The translations under genes and the position numbers were made by a program. Positions 1 to 64,000 of a DNA stretch of 64,000 nucleotides are shown here, in pieces. A model generated the notes under the pieces. That model saw only the letters and a list, made by a program, of their open reading frames with translations, ran no database searches and was not told the DNA's origin. This DNA is from Escherichia phage Ecwhy_1: sequence record MH791411.1; one strand, given 5' to 3'. Within the stretch, counting starts at the first letter, position 1; the number at the start of each line of letters is the position of its first letter.

Positions 1-224
1 TACTTTTTCCAGTACTCTGGATTTGGTGGCACTTCACCACGAACGATACTGACATGTGCTCCCCATTGTGGGTCTTTAATATCAATATGTAAGTCAGTTC
101 TGATGAAGTACTGGTAGTATCGAACCAACTGTAATGGAAGTTGCAGTACTAACCAGAAGTCCTTCTTCTTTTTCATAGTGCCACGATCTGGATCATACAC
201 CAGAGTTCCTTCCATTTCAATCAT
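1..224 (-). CDS. hypothetical protein, truncated by window edge
   Basis: Open minus-strand frame from ATG at 224..222 (MIEMEGTLVYDPDRG...) with no stop before position 1; absent from track because incomplete. Confidence 0.35.
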   Translation of the reverse strand, partial: MIEMEGTLVYDPDRGTMKKKKDFWLVLQLPLQLVRYYQYFIRTDLHIDIKDPQWGAHVSIVRGEVPPNPEYWKK

Positions 225-231
225 ATTTTAC

Positions 232-435
232 CTATAAATTTACATATATATTTTTATTTTCAATACGAACATAAGTTTCTAAAACATCTTTCGGAATTTT
301 ATTACTTGTTTTGTACCATGTAGTATTATCTACTAAAACAAAAGTTTCACCTTCAGTTTCACCAAATGTACTTAGTGCATAAATGAAGTAGTTTGGTGAT
401 GCACTACAATAAACATCAGCATTAATTTCAATCAT
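232..435 (-). CDS. hypothetical protein
   Basis: Track ORF, 67 aa, packed against neighbours on minus strand; no motif recognised. Confidence 0.4.
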   Translation of the reverse strand: MIEINADVYCSASPNYFIYALSTFGETEGETFVLVDNTTWYKTSNKIPKDVLETYVRIENKNIYVNL

Positions 436-581
436 ATTTTACACCACAATAAAGCTTAATACAACGAGTGTAATAAACACACCCACAATGGCGGTCATTT
501 CAGGGTTAGCATCGTATGTATAACGGATGCACTTTAGAAAATCTTTACCAAACTTTTTTAGTCCATTCATATATTTTCCTT

Positions 582-938
582 TCATTTCTTGTGTAAAGGG
601 TCGGCACTTTCATAATAGATTGTATCATTGTTTCGCTCAATAGTAAAACTCTTTTGACACAACTCTTCAGCTAAACCCTTAGCATAGTTTAATACATCTC
701 GGTTGAGATATACTTCTTCTTTTGGGAAGCGTGGGTACTGAATAATACGAGCACACATTCCACTTTCAAGACCACCCGTGTAGATGTATTCACACGGAAT
801 CAATTGTACACAAAATCCAAGCTTGAATGCAAACTTTCGTGTGTACTCTCTTGCTGTTTGGATATCACCAGCAATATGAATATTCCAGTACTGTGTTTCA
901 ACTGTACCTTTGTCGATGTATTTCATACTCATCTCCAA
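582..938 (-). CDS. hypothetical protein
   Basis: Track ORF, 118 aa; no motif recognised. Confidence 0.5.
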   Translation of the reverse strand: MEMSMKYIDKGTVETQYWNIHIAGDIQTAREYTRKFAFKLGFCVQLIPCEYIYTGGLESGMCARIIQYPRFPKEEVYLNRDVLNYAKGLAEELCQKSFTIERNNDTIYYESADPLHKK

Positions 939-955
939 TTATAGCATAAAAAATC

Positions 956-1351
956 CTACTTGCCCAAATCTTCTATAATTCTTTTTATGATATCATTGTT
1001 TTCCAGACATAAAGTACTGAAATTTCTACCTGTTTTTTCATTGAGTTCATTAATCTCAAGCATAAGATAACCATAAGTGATATCTTGGACCCTACTTCGT
1101 TTTACCCTTGAGTACAGTCTGATGGGTACAGATACACGAGTATTCAAAAAGAATTCTGATAAATCATAACGATATACCAGGTATTCATTCTTGTAACGTT
1201 TACGACTGTACGATTCTAAACACTGTGGGAAACGTCTATCAAACATACTACTTCTTAGTTGAAGTGTGATTGGATCTAACTTATGCGAGAAATACTTTTT
1301 GATTATTTTATTAAATCTTGTTACATGTCGTTTACGCCATCTCATAATCAA
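956..1351 (-). CDS. hypothetical basic protein
   Basis: Track ORF, 131 aa, Arg/Lys-rich; 4-nt overlap with downstream gene. Confidence 0.5.
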   Translation of the reverse strand: MIMRWRKRHVTRFNKIIKKYFSHKLDPITLQLRSSMFDRRFPQCLESYSRKRYKNEYLVYRYDLSEFFLNTRVSVPIRLYSRVKRSRVQDITYGYLMLEINELNEKTGRNFSTLCLENNDIIKRIIEDLGK

Positions 1352-1791
1352 ACCTTAAAAAATATAATAGGAAAGTATTTTGTTTCCGAATCTGAAATAC
1401 TGTTACAGTAATCTTTCAATTCATCATGGATAACATTCAAATGAATAGTAGGATAGTTCATAGGTTTCTGTACTGGGCCAGTGGCATATACGCAATCTGT
1501 TCTATCCCAACTTACATATTGGGTTGGGTAATTATCTTTAGTACGTTCTTCAATAATAATATTATATTCTGGTGTATTGAATATATACATATCACATTGT
1601 GAAATGTACTGAACATTAAAATCACCGTCAGTGAGATGGATCATGTTCCCATCGCAATATAAGCATGATGGTTCAGTGTATCCTAAAATTGAAGATAAAG
1701 TTCTGAAGTTTGCTCCTGGACCCAAATATACCAAATTCGTGTGTAAACAAATATCAATGAAACGTTTGAAGACTTCAGTTTCGTTATGCAT
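1348..1791 (-). CDS. hypothetical protein
   Basis: Track ORF, 147 aa; no motif recognised. Confidence 0.5.
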   Translation of the reverse strand: MHNETEVFKRFIDICLHTNLVYLGPGANFRTLSSILGYTEPSCLYCDGNMIHLTDGDFNVQYISQCDMYIFNTPEYNIIIEERTKDNYPTQYVSWDRTDCVYATGPVQKPMNYPTIHLNVIHDELKDYCNSISDSETKYFPIIFFKV

Positions 1792-1834
1792 ATAGATACC
1801 TTAAAAAGACCCCACATAGTGAGGTCAAACACTT

Positions 1835-2059
1835 TTAAACGTTATCATCATCCAAAGCTTCACGGTAAACATAATAAACATGCGTACCTAGAAGAACAAT
1901 GAGTACAATGAATACTAACCAGAATGGTACAAAATGCAGTACAAGTGCAAATGCCATTACGGTAATAACCATCACTACTGAACTAAAAATAAGACTAGTC
2001 GCTTTTTTAAATCCAGATAGTACATCATTCAAAACGCGTTTCATAAATGAATCAACCAT
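1835..2059 (-). CDS. small membrane protein
   Basis: 74 aa with long hydrophobic stretch (VVMVITVMAFALVLHFVPFWLVFIVLIVLLG). Confidence 0.45.
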   Translation of the reverse strand: MVDSFMKRVLNDVLSGFKKATSLIFSSVVMVITVMAFALVLHFVPFWLVFIVLIVLLGTHVYYVYREALDDDNV

Positions 2060-2636
2060 TTTTATTCCTCATATAATCCATATAGCAAGTTCTGCATAGA
2101 CTCTTGTATGATTCATCACCACCAATAAAGACTTTATCAGTACTTTCAACTATACGGGCATTCATAGTGGCTTCTTTGCCACACTTCTGATTCTCACACA
2201 CGTTCTTAAGTTCATGTATGTCATCAGCTATTTCGAACAGTCTTTGTGAACCTTCAAAAAGATTGGATTCAAAATCTGTTCGTATTCCATAACAGGAAAC
2301 ATCAACACCATAATTATCTGCTATATCAGCTAAATGGTCAATTTGTTCTCTGTTTAAAAATTGACATTCATCAACATAGATACTGTTAATGTCAACGTCA
2401 TTTTTGAGTGTTTCTTTAACTTTAAGAAGAACACTAATGTCATTTTTTGGAATTACTTCAGCCACAGCTTCGATGCCAATTCTTGAAGTAATCTTTCCTG
2501 TTCCATAACGATCATCAAGTGCACTGGTTAAGTAAATTACCTTCATTCCATTTTTCTTATGGTTATATGCTTTTTGTAAAAGATGAGTACTTTTACCACT
2601 AGACATACTACCATAGTAATATACTAATTTACCCAT
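2052..2636 (-). CDS. tk: thymidine kinase
   Basis: P-loop YYYGSMSSGKSTHLL near N-terminus, DECQFL motif, C-terminal zinc ribbon CENQKCG...CRTCY; length 194 aa typical of Tk. Confidence 0.9.
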   Translation of the reverse strand: MGKLVYYYGSMSSGKSTHLLQKAYNHKKNGMKVIYLTSALDDRYGTGKITSRIGIEAVAEVIPKNDISVLLKVKETLKNDVDINSIYVDECQFLNREQIDHLADIADNYGVDVSCYGIRTDFESNLFEGSQRLFEIADDIHELKNVCENQKCGKEATMNARIVESTDKVFIGGDESYKSLCRTCYMDYMRNKNG

Positions 2637-2967
2637 TTTTAATCCTTAAGTACGTGTGCTTACATTTTAATCTATTACCATAGGATGAAATTGGGATATT
2701 GAACATTTCTATTTTACCCTCTTTTAAAAGACGTAAAATATCTGGATCGTTTTTGGTTTGTACACAATGAAGACCATTGACTTGAATTTCTAAACCATTC
2801 TTCAGAAATTCATAAATCTTCTGTCTACGCTTCCCACCGAAACTTTCATTTCGGATAACATCTCTTAGGTCTTTATATTCTTGTTTTAATTTCCTGTCAA
2901 AAAGTGTTCCATCTTTCTTTCTGATTTCTTCAATACACTTATATTGAGTTTGTCCTCTAAGAGCCAT
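2629..2967 (-). CDS. hypothetical protein
   Basis: Track ORF, 112 aa, basic; no confident motif. Confidence 0.45.
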   Translation of the reverse strand: MALRGQTQYKCIEEIRKKDGTLFDRKLKQEYKDLRDVIRNESFGGKRRQKIYEFLKNGLEIQVNGLHCVQTKNDPDILRLLKEGKIEMFNIPISSYGNRLKCKHTYLRIKNG

Positions 2968-3436
2968 ATTTGACCTCGTTGGGATATTTCTTCATTAACT
3001 CATGTAAACGTTGAATTTCCTGATTTTTCTTATGTTCTTCATCATACTTCTTAGAAAGATTCTTTCTTGTATTTGTTTCTAATAATCTAAAATTAGTACA
3101 GAATCTATCATTTTTAGCAACGTTCTTACGTAACGCATCAAAAACAGTACTGAAATAGTTATCCAATGGAAAAGAAGTATCAGTGTAATTATAAAAATCC
3201 ATTACATTTGTCATGTTCACATGTTCAATTACCGCACCATTGTGCGTTACAATAAACATTATATCACCATAATTACAATTTGCATCAGTACGGTACAGAT
3301 ATAAATGATCACGTAAATAATCTTTTAATTTATGTTCAATACCACTTTGTTCAGTACTTTGAAATACCAAAACTTCACCATAGATTGTATTACCTTCATA
3401 ATCATTTGGTTCGCGGATAATTGTAAGGTTATACAT
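2957..3436 (-). CDS. hypothetical protein
   Basis: Track ORF, 159 aa. Confidence 0.5.
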   Translation of the reverse strand: MYNLTIIREPNDYEGNTIYGEVLVFQSTEQSGIEHKLKDYLRDHLYLYRTDANCNYGDIMFIVTHNGAVIEHVNMTNVMDFYNYTDTSFPLDNYFSTVFDALRKNVAKNDRFCTNFRLLETNTRKNLSKKYDEEHKKNQEIQRLHELMKKYPNEVKYGS

Positions 3437-3444
3437 ATAACTCC

Positions 3445-3735
3445 TTATACCGGAGATACGGTACTCAGCATTAGTAGAGCAGTGTTTTCATCAATTTCAT
3501 GTTGATTGTCGCACACTAGTGTTTCCAATAGGTCTGGATTGTAATAATAATGTTCATAATCTGTATCATTTGGAATATGGTGATAGGTGAATACAATGTC
3601 AAATACATCATCATCATTTTCACTTTTGAAACGCTTTAATTCTTCTACACTTTCAACAAAACCATACTCTTCAAAAGCAGTAGTACCATCAGTAAGTTTC
3701 ATCCATGCACTTGCGACAATTTTCATAAATTTCAA
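3445..3735 (-). CDS. hypothetical acidic protein
   Basis: Track ORF, 96 aa. Confidence 0.45.
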   Translation of the reverse strand: MKFMKIVASAWMKLTDGTTAFEEYGFVESVEELKRFKSENDDDVFDIVFTYHHIPNDTDYEHYYYNPDLLETLVCDNQHEIDENTALLMLSTVSPV

Positions 3736-3739
3736 ATCC

Positions 3740-4327
3740 TTATTCTTTTGTAATGTTTAGTTTAGAAACGAAATGGTTTTTTGCTTCTTCAAATGTCATT
3801 GAAGTATATACTGGGTTCCAATTATCGTCAAGATCTGTAAGTACTTTAACTTCCATTACATCTTCAGGTGTGTAGAATTGCCATGTGTTATGATCTGGTT
3901 CATAATTAGGGTCTAGTGTGAAAACTGTTCCATTCTGACCATAAACTTGTCCATCCTCTAATAGCTCACGAAATAAGTCTTCCCCAGTTGTTGGGTCTTC
4001 GTATGCATTATAAAAAGGAAAAACAACATTCTCAACATCAGTTCGGGTAGTACCATCGTCTTCATCATATTCAACCAAACGGTCCTGATGAAATACTAGG
4101 TCAATAGCACCAATGCGAGGTTTATTATGTGGAGTTTTGATTTCTTGCTGGGAATTGTAATCCATACGTTCAGTACTGATGAATACACCACTTGGTGTGA
4201 TTTCAATACCAGATACATTTTCTGGTGAATAATAAGAGTCACACATATCATCAATATGCATGTGCTCATGATACACTTCCATTTCAGGGTTCTGCATCAA
4301 CAGTGCTGCTAGGTCTTTTGCTTTCAA
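3740..4327 (-). CDS. hypothetical protein, paralog of 5067..5684
   Basis: N-terminus MKAKDLAALLMQNPEMEVYH...TPSGVFIST matches MKSHDLAKLLLSQPNLDIYH...TPSGIFTT of 5067..5684. Confidence 0.5.
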   Translation of the reverse strand: MKAKDLAALLMQNPEMEVYHEHMHIDDMCDSYYSPENVSGIEITPSGVFISTERMDYNSQQEIKTPHNKPRIGAIDLVFHQDRLVEYDEDDGTTRTDVENVVFPFYNAYEDPTTGEDLFRELLEDGQVYGQNGTVFTLDPNYEPDHNTWQFYTPEDVMEVKVLTDLDDNWNPVYTSMTFEEAKNHFVSKLNITKE

Positions 4328-4716
4328 TCTTCAATCTCCATAGAGTCATCACTTTCGTAATCATCACTAGTGTACTTAGTTTTTACCTCAATACCATTCT
4401 CATGAAGGTATGTGATAAAGCCATTACCATGAACGAATTGATTATAATATGTATTTTCTTCTACATGTGAGTCATAATCATCTTCGTAATATGTGGGCAT
4501 TGTAACATCATGACCAGCACTTTGCAAGTACTGGAACAATTCTTTCAGAACTACTTCGATATCACCTTCTTCTGTGCCATAACAATATGCAGGTTCACCG
4601 TGAGTGAATTTGAATCCTTTACAGGAAACTGTATAAATGTCACTCATGTTCATACCACAATCATCACATTCATGTATAGAACAATGCTGGTGGAATTTAA
4701 TCTTTTTGATTTGCAT
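4324..4716 (-). CDS. hypothetical Cys-containing acidic protein
   Basis: Track ORF, 130 aa; HQHCSIHECDDCG cysteine/histidine cluster. Confidence 0.45.
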   Translation of the reverse strand: MQIKKIKFHQHCSIHECDDCGMNMSDIYTVSCKGFKFTHGEPAYCYGTEEGDIEVVLKELFQYLQSAGHDVTMPTYYEDDYDSHVEENTYYNQFVHGNGFITYLHENGIEVKTKYTSDDYESDDSMEIED

Positions 4717-5050
4717 TTAGAAAATCCTGTAAAGATGTAGTAGACATTGGACTATCAGCACCATCATACCACAGTGATGTATATGGCTGAACTGAACTAA
4801 TATCAATACAGAATCCTTCACGCTCACATTTTCGAGCGAATTCTTCAGTAGTTAGTTTGTTACCAAAAGAAATCTCAAATTCATAACTAGACATATCAAT
4901 ATCAGTACTGTAAATCAATGTACCATCATATGTAATATGGAGTTTAGAATCTGCGTCAAAAAGACGATCTGAAATAGCTTCATAATCATCTTCAGGAACT
5001 GCTTCAATAAGACGGGCCATTAGTCCAGATGTTACGCGGTAATCACTCAT
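4697..5050 (-). CDS. hypothetical protein
   Basis: Track ORF, 117 aa. Confidence 0.45.
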   Translation of the reverse strand: MSDYRVTSGLMARLIEAVPEDDYEAISDRLFDADSKLHITYDGTLIYSTDIDMSSYEFEISFGNKLTTEEFARKCEREGFCIDISSVQPYTSLWYDGADSPMSTTSLQDFLNANQKD

Positions 5051-5066
5051 TTTTTAATCCTTTTTT

Positions 5067-5684
5067 TTATTTTTCAAGTTTATCAATAATAGAAGGTGAT
5101 ACTTTTACATTGAATTCAGAATCAGGAAAATCTTTAGAAAATGAATCAATTTGTTCTTGTGAAAGTTCTTCTTTTTGTGGAAATAACATTTTAACTAAAT
5201 TTTTACCACATTCAATTGCTTCATCATACGACATAGTTTCCCATGTTCCATGCCAAGTACTAGGTTCATATTCTGTCAGTACAGAAATGAAATCAATATC
5301 ATCGGGTGTATACCAAACAGCATTTTGATTCCCTGATGGTGCTGATTGATTTTTACCTAATAAAACAATTGGCTTTTCATAAGGAATGTTAAATATCAAC
5401 CCAGATTCTAAGTTAAGAACAGTTTGAATAGATGAACCCTCCAATTTTGGAGTAATAGTACCATCCTTAAAGAAAATTTGTACATGACCCAAGAGTGGGG
5501 TTTCATATGGTGTAAGTACATTTTCAGAAACTGATGTGGGTTTTGCCGTTGTGAAAATACCAGATGGGGTGACCATTAATTTATTATCAAAATTCTGATA
5601 ATGCAATTCACTATCCACATCATAATGATAAATGTCTAGATTTGGTTGAGATAGTAGTAATTTTGCTAAATCATGAGATTTCAT
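5067..5684 (-). CDS. hypothetical protein, paralog of 3740..4327
   Basis: Start moved to internal ATG at 5684 (MKSHDLAKLL) by paralog alignment and GGAG-type RBS upstream; track start 5714 lies inside a terminator hairpin. Confidence 0.5.
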   Translation of the reverse strand: MKSHDLAKLLLSQPNLDIYHYDVDSELHYQNFDNKLMVTPSGIFTTAKPTSVSENVLTPYETPLLGHVQIFFKDGTITPKLEGSSIQTVLNLESGLIFNIPYEKPIVLLGKNQSAPSGNQNAVWYTPDDIDFISVLTEYEPSTWHGTWETMSYDEAIECGKNLVKMLFPQKEELSQEQIDSFSKDFPDSEFNVKVSPSIIDKLEK

Positions 5685-5693
5685 TTTATTTCT

Positions 5694-5725
5694 CCAAAAG
5701 AAAAGGAGAGTCACAATGACTCTCC
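5694..5725 (-). terminator. putative intrinsic terminator
   Basis: 9-bp stem GGAGAGTCA/TGACTCTCC with CAA loop, followed on the minus strand by a T-rich run; sits after gene 5733..6173. Confidence 0.4.
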
Positions 5726-5732
5726 ATATATT

Positions 5733-6173
5733 TTATTGTAAAACTTTGAGTTTGTAAAGCATTCCTTCACAAAAACTCATAATGTCTTCTAGCGTGTTAG
5801 TACTACCATAGTCTTCAGCCTCTTCTAGCATAGCATGAATGGCTTTACATTGACTAACATATTCTTCAAGAATTGGTACACAATCCTCGATAGGGGTAAA
5901 ACGATAACTGTTACCAGTACCTACCTGCAATGCCCCGCGAGTGTTCATAATACCCTCTACAAATGCATCAACGTACTCAGGTAACTCTTTGTATAGTTCA
6001 TCCAATTGTAGGTGCTTCGTGTAGAAATGGCTCTGTAAATGCCAGTTGTGAGCAGCAGCACTTAAAAATAAACTATTCTCAATAAATGTAAGTAGTACTT
6101 CATCATAAGAACTATCTTCTTCAGTATCTCCGATAAAGTCCATTACATGTCGTAAATCATTAATATTTTCCAT
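5733..6173 (-). CDS. hypothetical acidic protein
   Basis: Track ORF, 146 aa. Confidence 0.5.
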   Translation of the reverse strand: MENINDLRHVMDFIGDTEEDSSYDEVLLTFIENSLFLSAAAHNWHLQSHFYTKHLQLDELYKELPEYVDAFVEGIMNTRGALQVGTGNSYRFTPIEDCVPILEEYVSQCKAIHAMLEEAEDYGSTNTLEDIMSFCEGMLYKLKVLQ

Positions 6174-6203
6174 AAATCTCTCCTTAGAGTTATTCTATGG
6201 TAT

Positions 6204-6632
6204 TTAGTTAATAATAAAGGTAACTTCAGGATTCATTTCTGAAACTGCATTTCTCTTACTTCTATTCCATAGTACTCTATTGTTATATAATGAAGAATCA
6301 CAAATTATAAGTAAGCAATTCCTTAATCTACTTACAGTACTTTGATTACTTAAATCAGTTTCTGTAACAAAAAATACATTATCAGGAACTTCTACAGGAA
6401 TTGATTTATCAAAGAAGAAAACTACAATAGGTCTGTTTGTATGAACTAAATTAATAAAGTCTAAAATACTGTTATAAAATTCAGTTCCTTTGTTTAAACT
6501 TAATGGATCTTTGATTCTCTTCAAATAGGTCTGAACCAAATTATGATCGCTTTTGATTTGATACTCAAAATATTCTTTGAATAACATTTGTGTTAATTCA
6601 GATGTATTGGATATTTTCGTTGTGTTACTCAT
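6204..6632 (-). CDS. hypothetical protein
   Basis: Track ORF, 142 aa. Confidence 0.5.
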   Translation of the reverse strand: MSNTTKISNTSELTQMLFKEYFEYQIKSDHNLVQTYLKRIKDPLSLNKGTEFYNSILDFINLVHTNRPIVVFFFDKSIPVEVPDNVFFVTETDLSNQSTVSRLRNCLLIICDSSLYNNRVLWNRSKRNAVSEMNPEVTFIIN

Positions 6633-6718
6633 TCACTTCGTTCTCTCGTAACTCAAGAAGTCACTACGTTTACTTCGTAAACTAGTTCCTTCTGAAAATG
6701 ATAATGTACTTTAAAAGC

Positions 6719-7260
6719 TTGACGGGATTTGTTGAGGACTATTTCATCCCCCCGCAGGGGAATGAAGGTAATAAAAAAGAGACAATTAAGTCTCTCTTGA
6801 CGATGATGGCATCGGATATTATCGAATTGCGAATTTCTCAAATTTTGGACGGATCTTTCCTGTACCAAAATTTAGAGAGCGAAAGCGGGTTGCTCGGTTT
6901 CTCTCTATCGCAGTCATATGCAACGGTCGCTGGTCTTTTCATCAACAGCACTCAGTACTAAACTCTATTCGATCAAAGTAGTACCTGTTCTCAAATTTTG
7001 GACGCAACTTTCTTGTAAAATCGCGTCCACAATCCTTGAACTCCCTTAGCAAATTCGTAAGGTGCGAACCTTATACATCTATCTAGGAACTCTCTGTGTG
7101 CTTATTGGAGTTCTTTATACAGCCGTGTCGCCGTGATTCGTGGTCTTATCTCGTGTTTGTTTGATTGCCAGTACTCTAACAGGTTTCTTTTGCTGTTCGC
7201 TACAACGGTAAAGCTCATCTATCCTTTACATTTTCAAGAGAAGTAGGTTCTCATTATCCA
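6719..7260 (+). ncRNA. candidate structured non-coding element, copy A (paralogous to 57533..58016)
   Basis: Largest intergenic gap; long near-identical blocks shared with copy B; GNRA-capped hairpins in plus-strand sense (GC-GAAA-GC, TAAGGT-GCGA-ACCTTA); no conserved ORF; strand assignment tentative. Confidence 0.4.
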
Positions 7261-7322
7261 TTTTTCAATGTCCGTTGTCATTTTACAATATACATTATAT
7301 CACTAGGATGTATTATGTCCCG

Positions 7323-7736
7323 TTACATGTATACCTTTTTCAAATCCTTGGAACAACGGTCAAAAATTGTGTTGATGAATTCGACATCCTCTTTGATATT
7401 GGAGTCTATAGCATCATTCTCGTTTCTTGTTGTGTTCCTGTATTTGTGTTCAGGGTGATTGTATACCACCTTGACTACATTATTTAGGTCTACAAAAAAT
7501 GACGATTTTTGCGTATAGGAAGCCTGAAGCTTGATGAGTTTACCATCGTTTTGTAGATTAGTCTTGTGAATTAGTTCTTCAATACCATCTAAATGGCTAT
7601 AGCTATCCTGTTCTTTGACGAATGTAACAGTTACCAGTACTGACTTCTCATCTCCAAAGTCAGAGATATTTTTAACAGCACTGATGATTTCTAAGTTTGA
7701 AAAATCTAATTCTTTTAGCATTACAAATATTTCCAC
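7323..7736 (-). CDS. hypothetical protein
   Basis: Track ORF, 137 aa. Confidence 0.5.
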   Translation of the reverse strand: MEIFVMLKELDFSNLEIISAVKNISDFGDEKSVLVTVTFVKEQDSYSHLDGIEELIHKTNLQNDGKLIKLQASYTQKSSFFVDLNNVVKVVYNHPEHKYRNTTRNENDAIDSNIKEDVEFINTIFDRCSKDLKKVYM

Positions 7737-8077: not shown

Positions 8078-8088
8078 TTATTTTCTCC

Positions 8089-8121: not shown

Positions 8122-8131
8122 TCATAACATA

Positions 8132-8743: not shown

Positions 8744-8745
8744 TT

Positions 8746-55796: not shown

Positions 55797-55798
55797 AG

Positions 55799-56332: not shown

Positions 56333-56853
56333 ATGTTCTTCATCACCTGACCAATAGATTTAAGATGGTTGATTTTAGCTGGAGTCAAATACTTATCCAG
56401 TACTATTAAACAACTAGGGAATGGAGCACTGTCAGTCTTTTTATCTGGTTCTTCAGGGATACCGAACTTTAAGCGACCTTTTATAAAACAAATACAATCA
56501 CAAACTTTCGCAGCATAATCCTGAAAGGCTATAGTATCAGTTCTTGATGGTACGAGAATCAGTACTGTAGCACCTTTGTTATATGCATCAACTGCCTTAG
56601 ATAACCACGTTTTCAAATCACTGTACGGTGGGTTGAGCCACACGATATTGTTTCCCCAGTCCTGTTCAAGTGAATTGTCTTCTGGTGTAAAGAAATTATC
56701 ACACAATGCTGTTTCTTTAACACATGCTGCATCTAGTGTAAATCCCCAGAGTTCATCCAAATCTTCAAAGAAATCCTTTGGAGTAGTCCAGTTATCTTTC
56801 CCAGTACTGAAATGTACTGATTGTTTTTTCTTCGAAGCATCCTTCTTCGACAT
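56329..56853 (-). CDS. dam: phage Dam-family DNA N6-adenine methyltransferase
   Basis: WTTPKDFFEDLDELWGFTLDAAC ... DWGNNIVWLNPPYS ... LVPSRTDT ... IKGRLKFG, catalytic NPPY motif. Confidence 0.8.
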   Translation of the reverse strand: MSKKDASKKKQSVHFSTGKDNWTTPKDFFEDLDELWGFTLDAACVKETALCDNFFTPEDNSLEQDWGNNIVWLNPPYSDLKTWLSKAVDAYNKGATVLILVPSRTDTIAFQDYAAKVCDCICFIKGRLKFGIPEEPDKKTDSAPFPSCLIVLDKYLTPAKINHLKSIGQVMKNI

Positions 56854-56869
56854 ACATAATTTCCTTTGA

Positions 56870-57415
56870 TTATAGACAGTTAAGTACTATGTCATCAAAA
56901 GTACTACTGTCAATGTTGTATTCATATAAAAATTTAAAATGTGATCCATAACGCATCATCAGATTAAACTCTTCTTCAGTATTAAATTTGTAATCATGAA
57001 GAGTTTCAAGGGTACATGTTAAACCTAAAAACTCAATAATTTCTGATGTTACATCATTTCCTGAATTGAAGTATTTAACCCAAACACATTTTCCTTGTGG
57101 GTTGAATTTTCTATATTCTCCTTCTAGTTCTCCATTGACGATATGTGCTTTCGCACTGATTAGATTATTACTATAACGCTCTTCGTAGTAGTTCCCATAA
57201 CGAGCTTTAAGAATTGTAGGCTTCTTGGTTGGGAATAACTTAATGGAAGTTAATTCAAAACCGCACTGCAACTCTTTGATGTACGAAATACATCCCTTTT
57301 CTTTAATCACAACAAAACCAGTAAAATTCTCTTGGTCTTGGTTCTGATTGTCTGAATCAACAAATTCTAGTGTTTTATAAGTGACGCTTTTAGATTTTTT
57401 AATAAATGACATCAT
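56870..57415 (-). CDS. hypothetical protein
   Basis: Track ORF, 181 aa; GELEGEYRKFNPQGKCVWVKYFNSGN is faintly MORN-repeat-like. Confidence 0.5.
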   Translation of the reverse strand: MMSFIKKSKSVTYKTLEFVDSDNQNQDQENFTGFVVIKEKGCISYIKELQCGFELTSIKLFPTKKPTILKARYGNYYEERYSNNLISAKAHIVNGELEGEYRKFNPQGKCVWVKYFNSGNDVTSEIIEFLGLTCTLETLHDYKFNTEEEFNLMMRYGSHFKFLYEYNIDSSTFDDIVLNCL

Positions 57416-57532
57416 TATTCCTATGGAAACATCAATGACTGTACATGGCGTTGACTACATCAACACCAGTCGAATTATACACGCTTCGCATGTCTAATTC
57501 GACGAAAGTACTATGATTTGTTTTAATTAATA

Positions 57533-58016
57533 TTGACGGGGTTTGCTTGAGCATATTTCATCCCCCCCGCAGGGGAAAGAACAAAAAAAGTTTGACGCTG
57601 GTGGCCTTCACATAGTTCATATCACGAATTCTCTTACGAGGCGAAAGCGGGTTGCTCTGTTTCTCTCTATCGCGGTTCTTGTAGCAACGGTCGTCGGTCT
57701 TAAACATCCCGACACATAATACAAATACCATATGACCAGTACTTGTATTTGATTTCACGAATTTTGGACGCAACTATATTGTATAAATTACGACCGCAAA
57801 TTTCTCATGAAATCTCCCTTAGATAATTGGTAAGGTGCGATCCTTATATGTCTATCGAGGAACTCTCTTTATCCTATTGGAGTTCTTTATACAGCCGCAT
57901 TGCCGTGAGTGGTTCAAACTATGCCATCATCTAACGGGTTTCATTTGCTGTTCGTACTGAAAGGACTACTCATCTACCCTCTACTTTTCGAGTGGATTAG
58001 GCTTTAATCATTTCCA
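57533..58016 (+). ncRNA. candidate structured non-coding element, copy B (paralogous to 6719..7260)
   Basis: Second-largest intergenic gap; shares the same conserved blocks as copy A; strand assignment tentative. Confidence 0.4.
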
Positions 58017-58034
58017 TATGGAACCTTTCAGGAT

Positions 58035-58067
58035 TAAAAAAAGGCGACAACATATTCTGCTGTCACC
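58035..58067 (-). terminator. putative intrinsic terminator
   Basis: On minus strand stem GGTGACA/TGTCGCC (one G-U) followed by T7; ends the upstream gene just before element copy B. Confidence 0.45.
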
Positions 58068-58097
58068 TTACATTATATCATAAACTTATGGTATGTC

Positions 58098-58946
58098 TCA
58101 GTTGTATTCTGTTTTTTCAGTGAAATTAGTTAAGATATCTGCACTTAAGCTTCTCATAACCTCAATCTTACTTGGCATGAACCTGTGCTTGTTTTTTACA
58201 TACAACTCATCATCTTCAATGAAAGATGTGAACATGAATACCATATCTTCACGTGGAATTGAGAGAATATTACAGTTTTCATTTTCAGCAACAGGGGAAT
58301 CATTGTAGTACTTAGAGAATGCAGTACTTTGACGACCGATTATGATAGAATTTCGGATTAGAAAATTACTACAGTACTGAAAATCTTTGTAGTACTTGTC
58401 AAGGATATATGGCATTATCGCTTCTTTCACTTCTTCATATCCATTGGTACTATCAATTTCAGTACAATAATCTTCTCGGTCTTTTTTCCCTCGATGATTA
58501 TCAAACTCGTACTCAAAGAATAAATTTTTATTTAATGAATCATTTGAACCAACTGATCCACTATAGTATGATTTTCTATCATTCATTCGATCATCCGGGC
58601 ATGATGCATACATAGAAATGTCATGTGTTGACGTACCGATATAAATTTTCTTAGTAATGTGATTGTACGCGATGTAATCATAATCTTGTACTCCAGTTAG
58701 CATTAACTGGAACATCAATTCATCAGGAACATCAATTAACGGGTACTCAAACTTCGAATATCTACTACGACAGAAATTCTTTTCAAATGCTCGATATGCG
58801 ATGAAATCTTTTAGGTTTGTAATAGATTCATGCTCATGTGTACTACTGGTGCGTACATTGACATTAGTAGACGAGCAATACCCTTCAGATTCTTCTGCGT
58901 AGTCATAATAACCCTTACTGTAGTCAACGATTAGATAAAGTTTCAT
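58098..58946 (-). CDS. hypothetical protein
   Basis: Track ORF, 282 aa. Confidence 0.5.
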   Translation of the reverse strand: MKLYLIVDYSKGYYDYAEESEGYCSSTNVNVRTSSTHEHESITNLKDFIAYRAFEKNFCRSRYSKFEYPLIDVPDELMFQLMLTGVQDYDYIAYNHITKKIYIGTSTHDISMYASCPDDRMNDRKSYYSGSVGSNDSLNKNLFFEYEFDNHRGKKDREDYCTEIDSTNGYEEVKEAIMPYILDKYYKDFQYCSNFLIRNSIIIGRQSTAFSKYYNDSPVAENENCNILSIPREDMVFMFTSFIEDDELYVKNKHRFMPSKIEVMRSLSADILTNFTEKTEYN

Positions 58947-58997
58947 ATATCTCCAGACAAAAAAAAGACGAGATATTATATCCCGTCCTTTGGTTTA

Positions 58998-59303
58998 TTA
59001 GTGGCTTGCCCAGCAGTAAACAGGACGTAGATTTTCCATTGGGTTTACTTCAGGCTTCAGTACTGTAACACGAACTTCATACGGAGTACCATCTGCATGA
59101 TGGAACGTTTCGTAATGAATACTCTCAATGAAGGTTTCATATTCTTCTTGAGAACGTGAACGAACTGATGGGGAATATTTCTTTTTGGTATCTGATTTTA
59201 GTGTAACACTTACTAGTTCTGATTCTTCACCATTTTCAAGTTTATTGAAATCGAACTCTGGTACACCTTCAAACATATCAAATTTCATTCCGTTGTCTTC
59301 CAT
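58998..59303 (-). CDS. hypothetical protein
   Basis: Track ORF, 101 aa. Confidence 0.5.
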   Translation of the reverse strand: MEDNGMKFDMFEGVPEFDFNKLENGEESELVSVTLKSDTKKKYSPSVRSRSQEEYETFIESIHYETFHHADGTPYEVRVTVLKPEVNPMENLRPVYCWASH

Positions 59304-59354
59304 TTTAAATTCCTTTTTATATAATGTTAGTTAGATAGTTTTTAATAAATCAGA

Positions 59355-59741
59355 TTAGATTACGTCATACGGTAGAGTACCGTGACGGAATTTATCAAGT
59401 TGTGCTAGAACTTCTTTACGTTCGATAATCTCTGGCACATCTTCTTGCAGTTGGTCACATACTTCAACGATGAAATCCCAATCGCTCTCACAACTCACAC
59501 GTACTGCTTCAATTGTTTTCCAATCAGCACTAATTTCACCTTCAGGATTTACATACGAAGGCCATACCTTTCCATAGTCTTGTACTGATTTGTCGTTAAG
59601 AACACGAATAGCATTGAAAATCTGTCCAGTACTGAAGTGTTTAGTATTCTTCATGTCTTCTAAGCAACATAGCTTAGGTTCACCCTGGACTTCAATCAGA
59701 AGTACACCACCAATAGCTTTTAGAACAGAACTTGTATTCAT
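59355..59741 (-). CDS. hypothetical protein
   Basis: Track ORF, 128 aa. Confidence 0.5.
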   Translation of the reverse strand: MNTSSVLKAIGGVLLIEVQGEPKLCCLEDMKNTKHFSTGQIFNAIRVLNDKSVQDYGKVWPSYVNPEGEISADWKTIEAVRVSCESDWDFIVEVCDQLQEDVPEIIERKEVLAQLDKFRHGTLPYDVI

Positions 59742-59812
59742 CTATATCTCCATTTATCAAAAAAAGATGTGAACATTATATCACAAGGAATTGTCATGTC
59801 CACAATATTTTA

Positions 59813-60106
59813 TCAAATAGTCAAACTTTCGTGCCAGTTATTGAAATCGTTAATAGCCAGCATAAACATATTCTCATCATTAAATTCTAGAATATGTTCA
59901 TTGTATAAGTAGCTAATGTACTTATTACTACAGTGTTTGCTATTCATAATTAGCATTTCAACTGCACGTTCATACGAACATGGGCTGAGATACAATTTTG
60001 TTCCATCAGGATGCTCAATCTCCACTGCACCAGGTGGAATAAAACGTTCACCAGTATAAGGGATATACGGCTCTGTTTTGAAAATAAGTTTGAATTTAGT
60101 ATCCAT
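59813..60106 (-). CDS. hypothetical protein
   Basis: Track ORF, 97 aa. Confidence 0.5.
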   Translation of the reverse strand: MDTKFKLIFKTEPYIPYTGERFIPPGAVEIEHPDGTKLYLSPCSYERAVEMLIMNSKHCSNKYISYLYNEHILEFNDENMFMLAINDFNNWHESLTI

Positions 60107-60122
60107 ACCAAATCCTCCATAA

Positions 60123-60971
60123 TTACATTGTTTCTTTTATGTTGCGTAACATAGTATTAACTATGTTCATCTTCCCACCTAACTTGAAGTAATATTCCAA
60201 TTTATTAATAATATTACTTTTTAATATCTCAAATATTTGATATTCATTTGTTTCGAAACCAAGTTCGAATTGGAAAGTATATAAATTGTTGAATAGATGT
60301 ACCAACGATGCATCAGGTGATTCCATTGTAAATGTGTAGTTGGTACGATAACCAGTACTAATCACCACTTCCGATGATTCACCTTTCATGAATATGTCAA
60401 TATTATACATCATTGGGCGACCAGTTGCAATATCTTTCATTCGGAAGAATGCAGTACTACGATACACAACACCATCTTCGGTAACCTTTTCTTGTATAGT
60501 GATATTTGAAACTTCACTCTCTTTGAATTTGGATTCGAATGAATGAATACGATTTGATTTTTCATCATCCGTATACATAGTGCATGTATATTTTCCAAAA
60601 TCATCTCTAGATGTATATGATTTATCGCTGGCGGTTTTATAAAACGAAACCCCATTGATGTGTTCTTCTTTGTACATCATTGTGTCATTGGATTTGTAGT
60701 ATGAACAATTAGGTGTTGAAAGAGATTCAAAATTGTTCACATCATGACAGTAAGAAATAGAAGAATCGCTATACAGTACTACATCACGAATTGCAACTTC
60801 TTTTGAAGTACCTTTTTTGACAGAAATTTGAAAGTCATTGCATGGGAAGATTCTATATCCATCGTATGTATCTGATGTACTGATACCAAATGGTGTTGGG
60901 GAATTCAGAAATTCGTTGATATGTTCAAGTACTGAATACTTTTTGAAATTACGAAAATCTGTTGTATCCAT
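60123..60971 (-). CDS. hypothetical protein
   Basis: Track ORF, 282 aa. Confidence 0.5.
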   Translation of the reverse strand: MDTTDFRNFKKYSVLEHINEFLNSPTPFGISTSDTYDGYRIFPCNDFQISVKKGTSKEVAIRDVVLYSDSSISYCHDVNNFESLSTPNCSYYKSNDTMMYKEEHINGVSFYKTASDKSYTSRDDFGKYTCTMYTDDEKSNRIHSFESKFKESEVSNITIQEKVTEDGVVYRSTAFFRMKDIATGRPMMYNIDIFMKGESSEVVISTGYRTNYTFTMESPDASLVHLFNNLYTFQFELGFETNEYQIFEILKSNIINKLEYYFKLGGKMNIVNTMLRNIKETM

Positions 60972-61004
60972 AGTAATACAATCTCCTAAATTTCGGACAA
61001 AAAA

Positions 61005-61136
61005 TTAGTCGAGAATAAATCTCGACTTGTGTTTTACTTTACCATTCTTCATTGCTTTTTTACGGTCCACATGTGTTTGAGGTTTATTAAACTCATTCAT
61101 ATGCTTTTGTACAAAGTTGTTTACATTTTTAGCCAT
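61005..61136 (-). CDS. small basic protein
   Basis: 43-aa ORF not in track (MAKNVNNFVQKHMNEF...); 3' end forms hairpin GTCGAG/CTCGAC followed by T-run on minus strand. Confidence 0.3.
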   Translation of the reverse strand: MAKNVNNFVQKHMNEFNKPQTHVDRKKAMKNGKVKHKSRFILD

Positions 61137-61138
61137 AC

Positions 61139-61612
61139 TTACTCCAAATCGGGATCTTTAACTGTTAGGCTTTCAATATCACTTGCGTAAAGAACTACAT
61201 TAGTTTGTGTCTCTGATACTTTAAAATCATGATAACTATCTTTCACTTTAAAATTATCCAAAATAAACCCTTTACTACAACACATCATGATTTTATCATC
61301 TTTGATGGTGTATGTATTCTTTTTCTTACGTACTTCAGATTGTGGGGTAATATTATCATTGTTACGAATAACACAATCAATGTACTCGTCATTTGTACTC
61401 ATAGGCATACCCATGATAAACGAATTACTAGTACTGATTGTTAGTATGAAAACATTAGTATTTGGATTGTGAAAGAAGTCGTGCATAGTTTTACTGCATA
61501 AAAACAAGCACTGAATTATGTCCTTTACATTGAACATTATATCATGAACTTTGAATGCGTCCAACTCTAAAATGTCATCTATCTTTCCATTCTCAACAGT
61601 TTTAATCTCCAT
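61139..61612 (-). CDS. hypothetical protein
   Basis: Track ORF, 157 aa. Confidence 0.5.
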   Translation of the reverse strand: MEIKTVENGKIDDILELDAFKVHDIMFNVKDIIQCLFLCSKTMHDFFHNPNTNVFILTISTSNSFIMGMPMSTNDEYIDCVIRNNDNITPQSEVRKKKNTYTIKDDKIMMCCSKGFILDNFKVKDSYHDFKVSETQTNVVLYASDIESLTVKDPDLE

Positions 61613-61654
61613 GATCTATCCTTGATCTTCAAAGGCACTCCATGTGCACATATA

Positions 61655-62155
61655 TTAGGTCACAGCTTTGTATTTCTCCATTGCTTCGGTGATATTCAAT
61701 ACTGCTTGCGGTACGTCACTTTTGTTGTATGCAATGGTTAGTTTTTCCATGTTATTGAGAAGACTTAGAAACAATGGAAGTACTTCTGCATTGTCACTGA
61801 AGTTACAATCATTGACAGTACTCAATTGAAATAACTCACCAGCATCAACATTGAGTGTGTTGTATTCTTTAACAATGTTTTCTTCAGTATTGAAGATGTA
61901 GAATACAGTCCCCATGTGGTGTAAGTATACACCAGTATCATTCTGAATATGACATGGGGTGATTACAATTGCTGTGTTATCAATATTATTTACTATTGTC
62001 AAACGCAGACTATGTAACCCAAAGATTACAGTACAATCCTTTGTACTGTGTTGGATCTGGTCACTAGTAAAGGAAGACCCACTATGATTTTTAGATCCAT
62101 TTAGTATTTCTTTGATAATTTTAAATGAATACTTCATCGAATTAGTTAAAAGCAT
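61655..62155 (-). CDS. hypothetical protein
   Basis: Track ORF, 166 aa. Confidence 0.5.
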   Translation of the reverse strand: MLLTNSMKYSFKIIKEILNGSKNHSGSSFTSDQIQHSTKDCTVIFGLHSLRLTIVNNIDNTAIVITPCHIQNDTGVYLHHMGTVFYIFNTEENIVKEYNTLNVDAGELFQLSTVNDCNFSDNAEVLPLFLSLLNNMEKLTIAYNKSDVPQAVLNITEAMEKYKAVT

Positions 62156-62555
62156 GAACTTTACCTTTAAGTAAATTAATTAATGATCGCATAGATTCAG
62201 TACTGACAGTACCAAAATCAACACCTAAGCACTCGTATTGAAAGAACTCAATAGAATCAATTGAGTCCAAAGGAATCTCAACAACCTGATTCCCTATACC
62301 AGACATAGTAACATTGCTTTTATTAATCGTCAAGAAGTTTTTTGAATAAGTATTAAATTTTAGTGAAATCGCATCGGGGTGCTTTGTAACAATGCAGTAC
62401 TGGGAGCCATACACATATAGTACTTTACTTTCACTAAGATCCGTTTTAAAAAAATGAATCCCATTGAAGTATTTCTCATTGGCTCCCATCGCCGCGATTA
62501 GTTCATCTGTTGTTGTTAACCTTGTTTCGTTCTTCGTTAAACTGTTGAAAAGCAT
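62142..62555 (-). CDS. hypothetical protein
   Basis: Track ORF, 137 aa. Confidence 0.5.
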   Translation of the reverse strand: MLFNSLTKNETRLTTTDELIAAMGANEKYFNGIHFFKTDLSESKVLYVYGSQYCIVTKHPDAISLKFNTYSKNFLTINKSNVTMSGIGNQVVEIPLDSIDSIEFFQYECLGVDFGTVSTESMRSLINLLKGKVHAFN

Positions 62556-62976
62556 AGAATACTACCTTAACCATTTGTAGTGTTTCAGACATTACTTCTG
62601 ATGAAAATTCAACATCATTGAATTTCAGCATAGTGTTCTGTGTAAAGAAAGTTGCTTCTAAGTCTTCCAGATTGAAGGGTTCATCAAACAAATTAGTACT
62701 GAACATGTCAGTCTTCTTCTTGTATGTGAACAAGAATTTGGAATTATAACGAAGAACTATTTCATCTTTATTAACCAAAATACGTGCAATGTTTTGACGT
62801 GTCAATGTGGTAATGTTTAAATTGAACACGTTCTTGCGTGTTTCAGTGATATCAACAAAATACCCATCTCCCTGATGGATATTACATCGTACATCCAACC
62901 CTTTCTGTACTGTATTGAACAGTGCATCTTGAATAAAATAATTTGCTGTATCGATGTTTCCTAAAATGTCTAACAT
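62503..62976 (-). CDS. hypothetical protein
   Basis: Track ORF, 157 aa. Confidence 0.5.
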   Translation of the reverse strand: MLDILGNIDTANYFIQDALFNTVQKGLDVRCNIHQGDGYFVDITETRKNVFNLNITTLTRQNIARILVNKDEIVLRYNSKFLFTYKKKTDMFSTNLFDEPFNLEDLEATFFTQNTMLKFNDVEFSSEVMSETLQMVKVVFYAFQQFNEERNKVNNNR

Positions 62977-63488
62977 AACTTCTCCTTGATTGCTGTCATA
63001 TTTAGAAGAAATTCTTCAAGCAATTCCTCTGTAACATACTCAACATACCAGAATATCACAATATCTTTTGAAAGTCGAGTATTCTTAAAAATATCTACTA
63101 ACTCTTTGTAGTACTCAAGATCATATACATCTTTTATAATTAGTGAGTACTGAAATAGTGATTCTTCAGTTAACTTAAATTCTGGATATAGTAAGTCATT
63201 AAATTCTAATGATTCTGATTGTACTTTTATTTTAGTGAAGTCATTTGTTAATCCACCATTACATCCATATAATGCAGCGTAATTCACGAACTTGGCTTTT
63301 GGATTAAAATCAAGAACAGTTTCACCATTATATGACAATCGGTGGAACGCCGTGAACTTTGTAATTTGCCACGGTTGCTTAATATCTAAGTCATTTATGT
63401 CTTTATTATTGTACATAAGAACAGTGAATATTTCAGCAATCTTCAATAATAATTTAGTACGTGCTAGTACTGTCATAGGTTCAATCAT
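62970..63488 (-). CDS. hypothetical protein
   Basis: Track ORF, 172 aa. Confidence 0.5.
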   Translation of the reverse strand: MIEPMTVLARTKLLLKIAEIFTVLMYNNKDINDLDIKQPWQITKFTAFHRLSYNGETVLDFNPKAKFVNYAALYGCNGGLTNDFTKIKVQSESLEFNDLLYPEFKLTEESLFQYSLIIKDVYDLEYYKELVDIFKNTRLSKDIVIFWYVEYVTEELLEEFLLNMTAIKEKLC

Positions 63489-63901
63489 TATACACCTTCA
63501 TATTCATCAAGGAAATCTTCGATGATCATTTCTGCGTCATCCATGTGCATAGCATCAACTTCGACAATGCGAACCTTAGACGTATCCCAAATCATATAGC
63601 TAGAAACTGTATCTGGTTCGTAATCGTTTTTGTACTGAACTGCATCATAGCCGTTAATTTCGCAGTACTCAATCACTCCACGCCATTCGTCATCACTGCC
63701 CATATCCGTCCACAGAAGCACGTTATCAACATCAACTTCTAAGGTATGTAAGTATACTGTATCAGCGTCAACAACGTTCAGTGGGCTTCTAAGCTTGCGT
63801 AATGCAGCTTCTAAAGCACTGTGTTTACCTCCCATATGAAGACCACCATACGGGATATAAAAGTTATCAATTTTTACAGTACTCGCATGATACAGTTTCA
63901 T
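63488..63901 (-). CDS. hypothetical acidic protein
   Basis: Track ORF, 137 aa. Confidence 0.5.
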   Translation of the reverse strand: MKLYHASTVKIDNFYIPYGGLHMGGKHSALEAALRKLRSPLNVVDADTVYLHTLEVDVDNVLLWTDMGSDDEWRGVIEYCEINGYDAVQYKNDYEPDTVSSYMIWDTSKVRIVEVDAMHMDDAEMIIEDFLDEYEGV

Positions 63902-64000
63902 AATTCATTCCTATTTCAGTACTTTGACCAGGGCTTTAACCGCTGTTTCAAGTTGTGCAAAGTCGTTGATTGTAAGATAATGAATACCCAATGTACTCAT

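Follow-up and report, generated by a model that had tools for sequence, protein, structure and literature searches.

Short palindromes are treated in phage genomics as liabilities, and the question raised by the stretch of Escherichia phage Ecwhy_1 DNA analyzed here (sequence record MH791411.1; 64,000 nt, the whole of which is referred to below as the window) is why a clade of 350-kb phages that purges nearly all of them keeps about 1000 copies of a single one, the hexamer AGTACT. Of the ~119 genes of the window, nearly all are encoded by the minus strand; its coding sequences (CDS) were taken from an ATG-only gene caller. It is 100.0% identical, across the 7 kb searched, to Escherichia phage fEgEco12 (PP777464.1, 374,733 bp); over its entire length, the two are separated by a few substitutions and by a single small indel (at ~44.7 kb once the window is reverse-complemented), as befits a nearly identical isolate or assembly. 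The window corresponds to the reverse strand of positions ~53,918-117,917 of the fEgEco12 record. fEgEco12 is a Rak2-like jumbo myovirus, kin to PBECO4 and 121Q, with direct terminal repeats of 20,993 bp. Genome-wide counts were made on its complete sequence, one copy of the terminal repeat being counted for the coding/non-coding and octamer figures. The enrichment of AGTACT is mentioned neither in the literature on fEgEco12, RaK2, CBB and phAPEC6 nor in what full-text searches returned.

A pervasive over-representation of AGTACT had been claimed in a sequence-only reading of the window, and exact counting confirms it. The hexamer occurs 193 times (3.0 per kb; first site 11-16, last site 63918-63923), across genes and spacers, and is the commonest hexamer of the window, whereas 21.5 copies are expected from base composition and 17.7 ± 4.0 were obtained in 100 dinucleotide-preserving shuffles, none of which reached 193 (maximum 32). 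The excess over composition is ~9-fold. AGTACT is also the top hexamer genome-wide, with 1115 copies in fEgEco12. The hand counts of 9, 10 and 11 in three sample stretches, on which the claim had been based, were exact for the first and third stretches and off by one for the second (true counts 9, 9 and 11). The frequent extension to (C)AGTACTG, described in the same reading, is borne out by the flanks, as C precedes 49% and G follows 47% of the window sites. The extended form CAGTACTG is the most frequent octamer of the window, with 42 copies (a subset of the 193, within 886..62402; first 886-893, last 62395-62402) compared with 0.97 ± 0.98 in the shuffles, and the top octamer of fEgEco12, with 221 copies and a 58-fold excess.

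Regarding the null model, Markov expectations for the window rise with the order of the model, from 18.4, 37.3 and 68.9 at orders 1, 2 and 3 to 162.7 at order 4, where the observed/expected ratio is only 1.19. A maximal-order Markov expectation had been proposed as a check on the enrichment, and its outcome near 1 would seem to favor an artefact of codon, dicodon or amino-acid usage, all the more as AGT, ACT and GTA are favored codons. However, the order-4 null is circular: it takes as given the pentamers AGTAC and GTACT, whose abundance is due to AGTACT (193 of the 273 AGTAC occurrences in the window are AGTACT). The interaction between a left A and a right T around GTAC is significant both in the window (odds ratio 2.9, p = 2e-8) and genome-wide (p = 1e-36). 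Codon shuffling, the other check proposed, came out clearly in favor of a real excess. The window CDS contain 172 sites, compared with 44.7 ± 5.4 after synonymous-codon shuffling inside genes and 24.9 ± 4.7 after codon-order shuffling, with a maximum of 63 across the codon shuffles; for the fEgEco12 CDS, the figures are 821 observed against 229 ± 12 and 143 ± 12, respectively. All three reading frames exceed the synonymous null in fEgEco12 (3.2-, 3.8- and 4.2-fold), and non-coding DNA is the most enriched, with 151 sites compared with 11.5 expected (13-fold). The artefact explanation is refuted by these shuffles, leaving it a negligible probability, and the view that neither codons nor amino acids account for the word is upheld. 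The enrichment of AGTACT outlasts every non-circular null model.

Symmetry, reading frames and coding cost of AGTACT

The window sites are distributed among frames as 87 AGT-ACT, 56 nnA-GTA-CTn and 29 nAG-TAC-Tnn, with ~21 in non-coding DNA or at gene boundaries. Their surroundings are mirror-symmetric. In fEgEco12, C stands at position -1 in 430 sites and G at +1 in 462, while G stands at -1 in 91 and C at +1 in 75; in relative terms, C precedes 46% of the sites, G only 8% and either pyrimidine 68%, with a weak T-rich/A-rich shoulder beyond. This symmetry is present although almost all of the window genes share one strand. An explanation through RNA or codons would not yield mirror-image flanks. 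The preference is also graded. Relative to composition, GTAC without a favored flank is 1.3-fold in excess in the window, GTAC with one favored flank ~2-fold, AGTACT 9-fold, and CAGTACTG ~43-fold in the window and 58-fold in the genome. The one-mismatch neighbors of AGTACT lie at 0.63-1.36 of the synonymous null, neither much enriched nor depleted, and the deamination neighbors AGTATT and AATACT lie at 0.90-0.91. The occurrence of the word in all frames, in non-coding DNA, with symmetric flanks, and in promoter spacers and terminator stems (see below) places the signal at the level of DNA rather than of codons. AGTACT is therefore a symmetric signal acting at the DNA level. A DNA-level function had been suggested before, with binding, modification, nicking and packaging offered as candidates; the level stands, and among the four functions, binding is favored by the graded preference and by fixed promoter registers in two genera.

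The signal has left its mark on the proteins. Ser-Thr dipeptides are written AGTACT in 53% of cases, compared with 15% expected from codon usage, and the word is used in 46% of the x-Val-Leu contexts and in 40% of the contexts in which Gln, Lys or Glu is followed by Tyr and a codon starting with T. More than half of the Ser-Thr pairs use AGTACT, and the codon bias follows from the word rather than causing it. Dipeptide content is shifted as well, Ser-Thr being 1.47-fold in excess compared with 0.96-fold for Thr-Ser, and Val-Leu 1.29-fold compared with 0.93-fold for Leu-Val. The pressure for AGTACT has thus reshaped both codon choice and dipeptide content, and carriage of the word costs the phage measurably in codon choice and in amino-acid sequence. 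As a separate observation, fEgEco12 encodes tRNAs for Ser(UGA), Ser(GCU), Met, Asn and Thr(UGU), the last in two copies (segment L006, 40892-45140). Four of the six are Ser or Thr tRNAs, and Ser(GCU) reads AGT; the set fits the most frequent reading of the motif, AGT-ACT, which is suggestive only and proves nothing.

Maintenance, spread and phylogenetic range

Comparison with PBECO4 (84% identity over 42 kb) revealed that 79 of 112 AGTACT sites of the window are kept in place (70.5%), compared with 42.5% for all hexamers. The word is either intact or much altered, single-mismatch states being rare. The differences between fEgEco12 and PBECO4 at the sites comprise many types of change, including transversions and amino-acid replacements, the commonest being AGTTCT/AGTACT (Ser-Ser vs. 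Ser-Thr). At conserved amino acids, codon identity is 88% within sites and 72% outside them; for individual codons, the values inside and outside are 0.88 and 0.64 for ACT (p = 0.002), 0.83 and 0.68 for GTA, and 0.87 and 0.58 for TAC. Synonymous positions within AGTACT evolve about half as fast as those outside, and AGTACT is maintained against synonymous drift. In the more distant RaK2, GAP32, CBB and BF (60-66% protein identity), the motif is used at 0.62-0.79 of the conserved contexts in which fEgEco12 uses it and at 0.24-0.62 of those in which fEgEco12 is without it. Since occupancy is alike in all of the compared genomes, density is the quantity most conserved.

Sites are spread evenly. 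Successive 8-kb portions of the window contain 22, 22, 20, 22, 19, 25, 31 and 32 of them, which is uniform (chi-square p = 0.44); per-gene counts in fEgEco12 follow a Poisson distribution (dispersion 1.04), and spacing is exponential save for the shortest intervals. Regular phasing or clustering was rejected on these grounds. No gene of fEgEco12, be it early, replicative or structural, has significantly more or fewer AGTACT sites than expected. Density is doubled in the terminal repeats (6-7 per kb), and the first 1.7 kb at the genome end, annotated as non-coding, contains 15 sites. A role in packaging, one of the functions offered earlier, is disfavored by the defined 21-kb terminal repeat together with the even, Poisson-like spread. 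One region of the fEgEco12 record, 21000-45000, which contains very small genes, is unlike the rest of the genome in that AGTACA (73) is more frequent than AGTACT (53).

A Poisson pattern of this kind would also be produced by a biased mutation, repair or gene-conversion process that makes AGTACT from near-matches, the word then having no function for the phage. A possible model is a repair of heteroduplexes in the manner of very-short-patch repair, in the course of the heavy recombination that characterizes T4-like phages. Such a drive is in keeping with the exponential spacing, with enrichment being highest in the least constrained DNA, and with the occupation of about half of the synonymously available contexts in every gene class; a slower apparent loss of sites would be expected from it too. 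On the other hand, no one-mismatch neighbor is depleted as a sink, the range of 0.63-1.36 given above including AGTATT and AATACT at 0.90-0.91, and the differences from PBECO4 are varied, with transversions and replacements among them. Neither Vsr nor MutH is among the top 25 Pfam families listed per batch, and the one ORF considered for such a role, g456, has no Vsr match. Promoter registers shared by different genera would not be expected of a blind drive. This origin of the excess is considered quite unlikely.

Enrichment of ~7-fold was found in PBECO4, RaK2, GAP32, CBB and BF. In IMG/VR, AGTACT stands at 3.2- to 6.5-fold in every relative analyzed (contigs of at least 9 kb) with a capsid protein at least 80% identical. 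For most of the environmental relatives whose capsid identity is 63-72%, the ratio lies between 0.1 and 2.6. The trait is common to five sampled enterobacterial Rak2-like genera. Elsewhere, the word is scarce. The relatives PA5oct and XacN1 have 3 copies compared with 16.6 expected and none compared with 12, respectively; there are 4 compared with 17 in a 50-kb sample of T4, and 4 compared with 23 in a 100-kb sample of E. coli K-12. It is ~75 times denser in the phage than in the host sample (one per 330 bp vs. about one per 25 kb). AGTACT is generally avoided, as in E. coli, T4, PA5oct and XacN1, and one clade has reversed the sign.

This reversal stands in a genome that has otherwise been cleared of palindromes. 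The tendency of phages to deplete palindromes, of which the sequence-only reading had made a general point, is strikingly strong here. The window lacks 26 of the 64 palindromic hexamers and has not a single GCGC; in fEgEco12, 25 of the 64 are at zero where 12-39 copies are expected, including GGATCC, CTGCAG, GGTACC, CGTACG, CCATGG and GCATGC, and GCGC is at zero compared with 382 expected. PBECO4, RaK2, GAP32, CBB and BF likewise have no GCGC and lack 24-32 of the 64 palindromic hexamers, as do the analyzed IMG/VR contigs with capsids at least 80% identical, unlike PA5oct. The AGTACT count and a GCGC count of zero can serve together as a diagnostic of the clade. An uncultured relative with 65% capsid identity, IMGVR_UViG_3300044959_000303 (21 kb surrounding the capsid gene), favors another word, TTCGAA, with 68 copies compared with 7.1 expected, and TCGA is 4.3-fold in excess, which suggests that the trait can switch its word between lineages. 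The same contig lacks all palindromic hexamers centered on CTAG or TTAA and contains many long antisense open reading frames (ORFs).

Promoter registers and a candidate binding protein

The terminal repeat of fEgEco12 carries many small early genes, each behind a sigma-70-type promoter, and it is here that AGTACT takes up fixed positions. In the -10 register, it reads AGTACT-G-TATAAT or AGTACT-GG-CATAAT and starts at -7/-8 from the -10 hexamer (n = 26). In the -35 register, it reads AGTAC-TTGCAA or AGTACT-A-TTGACA, abutting or overlapping the -35 element, and starts at -27 (n = 10). Many promoters contain both registers with the sites 21-22 bp apart, a distance that places the paired sites on one face of the helix. 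Pectobacterium phage CBB, with 60% amino-acid identity to fEgEco12, has 155 AGTACT copies in its 24-kb terminal region, and its promoter registers match, with 12 sites at -7 and 21 at -27 to -29. Dozens of promoters with AGTACT at the -35 and/or the -10 element are located in the two terminal regions (fEgEco12 terminal repeat, segment L003 1-21000; CBB, segment L097 1-22456), and the word can be used to identify the terminal-repeat early promoters. A fixed position on the core promoter that is conserved across divergent genomes, as would be expected of an operator, was found in fEgEco12 and CBB.

A similar layout is present in the window. Directly upstream of a minus-strand gene start at ~24575 (fEgEco12 g232), two AGTACT sites lie 17 bp apart (24593 and 24610; 24593..24615). 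Read on the minus strand, the region is ATC-AGTACT-GTTATAGTGGC-AGTACT-TTTTATTTGGAGATTACAATG, and the upstream site adjoins a -10-like TATAGT; the arrangement of AGTACT, G and a -10-like element matches that of the early promoters of the terminal repeat. The word also occurs at the opposite end of transcription units. Terminator-like hairpins between RCC1-like paralogous genes outside the window have stems made of two AGTACT copies, for example gccAGTACTcaAGTACTggc (fEgEco12 segment L007, 30372-30388, 37028-37041 and 41543-41556).

Taken together, AGTACT, or CAGTACTG, is tentatively read as the selected recognition site of a lineage-specific, dimeric protein that binds double-stranded DNA, serving both as an early-promoter operator and as a genome-wide tag of phage DNA. 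A binding protein fits better than an enzyme target or a blind drive because the motif is symmetric and graded, because its synonymous positions are constrained, because it is carried at a cost to proteins, because it is confined to one clade, and because it occupies promoter registers. The reader would be a candidate homodimer specific to enterobacterial Rak2-like jumbo phages, with CAGTACTG as its preferred form, and natural selection would keep AGTACT dense throughout the genome. At the early promoters, a dimer, or a dimer of dimers spanning the -35 and -10 sites, may compete with sigma-70 RNA polymerase, so that these sites would act as operators that shut off or time early transcription. 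The ~800 further sites, evenly distributed across genes, would load the same protein on phage rather than host DNA, and AGTACT may in this way act as a 'self' tag by which the phage chromosome is protected, organized or globally regulated. From a selected DNA signal, we infer the steps to an 'operator' and to a 'self' tag. The broader proposal, in which Rak2-like enterobacterial jumbo phages mark their own chromosome by sequence, a phage protein reads the palindrome and thereby tells phage from host DNA so as to protect, silence or activate, or compact it, and the identity of the tag is switchable, is regarded as rather doubtful.

Several points weigh against a binding protein with these two roles. 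No reader protein came to light: no HTH, RHH, AbrB, TetR or other recognizable DNA-binding family is among the top 25 Pfam families listed per batch for the 471 ORFs, a search in which novel folds could be missed. The genes annotated as 'transcriptional regulators', g185, g307 and g390, are without a Pfam match. The Poisson spread of sites fits selection on density and a genome-wide mutational drive equally well. The fixed registers may partly reflect descent, because the promoters are paralogous within a genome and orthologous between genomes. The presence of AGTACT in terminator stems suggests that sites end up wherever they are tolerated rather than where an operator would be required. With a protein bound at intervals of 330 bp within genes, transcription might be impeded. 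Finally, an unprotected ScaI-type site of this density would be a liability, and no evidence of protection was found.

Enzymes, nucleases and host proteins as possible readers

AGTACT is a classical type II site, that of ScaI. It may accordingly be the target of a phage enzyme of the restriction-modification type, that is, a methyltransferase or other modifier, or a nickase, with the function carried by the modified or nicked site. Possible roles include an epigenetic clock at early promoters that distinguishes injected from replicated DNA, the loading of a sliding clamp, and protection against ScaI-type enzymes of the host. In addition to the identity of the site, the excess of TTCGAA and TCGA in IMGVR_UViG_3300044959_000303 would suit such an enzyme, as switches of specificity of this kind are typical of restriction-modification enzymes, and since E. 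coli, T4, PA5oct and XacN1 avoid AGTACT, a phage with 1115 sites is expected to need protection. Besides two DNA methyltransferases, the products of the phage include an annotated S-adenosylmethionine (SAM) hydrolase, several HNH nucleases, a WGR-domain protein, a ligase and a polynucleotide kinase.

The two methyltransferases, one a C5 enzyme of the CpG type and the other of the Dam family, are the only recognizable DNA methyltransferases of the phage, and neither is evidently specific for AGTACT or GTAC. The sole DNA-modification enzyme encoded in the window is g162 of fEgEco12, a Dam-family N6-adenine methyltransferase of 174 aa (56329..56853, minus strand; Pfam PF05869, E = 6e-33), with homologues of at least 60% identity in ~50 phage records, including a 358-kb Klebsiella jumbo phage. 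Characterized members of PF05869 methylate GATC, and to judge from its family g162 more probably methylates GATC than AGTACT. The second enzyme, g455 (segment L006, 29943-30803), is a C5 cytosine methyltransferase as small as Dnmt3-like enzymes, and its target-recognition domain is likewise minimal; beyond the group, the homologues closest to it come from unrelated coliphages and ICP1. It is overlapped by 49 nt by g456, an ORF of 176 aa (segment L006, 30755-31285), which was considered as a Vsr and rejected, as it has no Vsr match. CpG methylation of RaK2 DNA has been detected by bisulfite sequencing, and the enzymes reported to digest this DNA are all ones unaffected by Dam, Dcm, CpG or EcoKI methylation (PMC3622015). 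g455 probably corresponds to the CpG methylase reported for RaK2, and it was set aside as an AGTACT methyltransferase on account of its Dnmt3-like nature and the CpG methylation of RaK2 DNA. Digests of fEgEco12 DNA with ten enzymes, ScaI not among them, behaved as predicted in silico (PMC13070987).

With one methyltransferase Dnmt3-like and the other of a GATC family, a modification function, as offered in the sequence-only reading, is left without support. No ScaI-type enzyme (RE_ScaI), other restriction endonuclease, Vsr or MutH is among the top 25 Pfam families listed per batch for the 471 ORFs. Moreover, a modification target would explain tolerance of the site and not a 9-fold excess, and a graded preference for flanking bases differs from the all-or-none recognition shown by type II enzymes. 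Nicking or cleavage is disfavored on general grounds, since gene conversion set off by a break or nick removes the cut allele, so that such sites should dwindle rather than accumulate. An enzyme target of the restriction-modification type is therefore thought unlikely. The target of ScaI and Eco255I (AGT^ACT) is the identical hexamer, but restriction targets are depleted in phages, whereas AGTACT is 9-fold enriched. In the absence of any protection of the sites, digestion of these genomes with ScaI is predicted to yield more than 1000 fragments.

Another possibility is that AGTACT acts as a Chi-like attenuator that halts a processive helicase-nuclease of the phage or the host, so that phage DNA, dense in the word, is spared while sparse host DNA is exposed; as a palindrome, it would protect from either direction. 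Like Chi in E. coli, AGTACT is the most over-represented word of its length, its density contrast between phage and host samples is ~75-fold, the Poisson pattern fits selection on density and not on position, and the 15 sites in the first 1.7 kb stand at a genome end. True Chi, GCTGGTGG, is seemingly already used against RecBCD by this phage. The E. coli Chi octamer is present in 24 + 12 copies compared with 2.3 expected (36 in all, ~15-fold); in the window, GCTGGTGG is located at 4686 and 57597, and CCACCAGC at 35002, 37337, 41906 and 49529. The terminal repeat contains 10 copies of GCTGGTGG, and two Chi copies form an inverted pair, CCACCAGCttgtGCTGGTGG, at 0.6 kb from the genome end (segment L003, 578-597). 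This excess looks like a shielding of linear ends from RecBCD. However, the Chi sequences known so far lack symmetry and are recognized in single-stranded form, whereas AGTACT and its flanks are palindromic, so that the asymmetry expected of a Chi-like word is lacking. No candidate nuclease was identified, and the fixed registers on promoter cores are left unexplained. A Chi-like role for AGTACT is decidedly unlikely.

AGTACT might instead serve a factor of the Enterobacterales host, for example as a set of sites for the nucleoid-occlusion protein SlmA by which host cell division is blocked or freed. The enrichment is confined to Enterobacterales-infecting members of the group, and the 12-bp SlmA site GTGAGTACTCAC has AGTACT as its core. 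SlmA requires G and T as the first two bases of its site, followed by a purine as the third (PMC3020112). These flank rules are violated in the phage, where position -1 is a pyrimidine in 68% and G in only 8% of the sites. The full site GTRAGTACTYAC does not occur in 354 kb, and half-sites are found at 31 of 1954 half-positions, at or below chance. T4, which has the same host, avoids AGTACT, implying that there is no general host-driven pressure. The SlmA reading is contradicted by these flanks and zero full sites, and service to a host factor is highly improbable. LexA and TrpR boxes were also rejected, by eye, as their flanks do not fit.

Placed among known systems, AGTACT shares the logic of a dispersed, selected word with several of them and is a member of none. 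HIP1 (GCGATCGC) is the highly iterated palindrome of cyanobacterial genomes and contains targets of cognate methyltransferases. Both words are short perfect palindromes found at intervals of a few hundred bp, whatever the frame and also outside genes. Both influence the choice of codons and dipeptides, are better conserved at orthologous positions than the sequence around them, and are specific to a clade. The HIP1-like features found for AGTACT are its rank as top word of its length, its presence in all frames and in non-coding DNA, and its orthologous conservation. Unlike HIP1, AGTACT is carried by a lytic phage, has a 6-bp core with a graded 8-bp extension instead of a strict octamer, has no evident methyltransferase of its own, stands in a genome from which nearly all other palindromes have been removed, and occupies fixed promoter registers. 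Chi (GCTGGTGG) resembles AGTACT in being the most over-represented word of its length, dispersed in genes and selected for density, and it marks 'own' DNA against a nuclease; it differs in being asymmetric, orientation-dependent, read as a single strand and served by a known enzyme, whereas AGTACT is palindromic.

The stoperators of cluster A mycobacteriophages such as L5 are sites of a phage transcription factor that act as promoter operator and recur many times in the genome, also within transcription units. Stoperators are asymmetric 13-mers, ~30 per genome, oriented with transcription in temperate phages and bound by a known repressor, whereas AGTACT forms ~1000 palindromic sites without orientation in a virulent phage. 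The DNA uptake sequences (DUS) and uptake signal sequences (USS) of Neisseria and Haemophilus are likewise dispersed 'self' tags, at about 1 per kb, which lie in genes and form inverted pairs in terminator stems; they differ in being 10-12 bp long, non-palindromic and read by the competence machinery of the cell. The SlmA site GTGAGTACTCAC shares the six central bases, but the flanks that SlmA requires are absent or disfavored in the phage. T4 discriminates its own DNA chemically, by hydroxymethylcytosine, and an AGTACT tag would be the sequence-encoded counterpart. If a reader protein exists, it would represent a new phage system for binding or marking DNA, based on a simple, portable tag of 6-8 bp, and would explain how T4-like phages without modified bases tell their own DNA from that of the host.

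Two further groups of sites are located in the window. A close pair with a start-to-start distance of 23 bp (62396..62424) lies outside the called genes, and its counterpart in the fEgEco12 record (55493/55516) is intergenic. The densest cluster of the window contains four AGTACT sites (58307, 58323, 58373 and 58391) within 90 bp (58307..58396); it is coding, and both of its pairs are coding in fEgEco12 as well (record 59521 and 59589).

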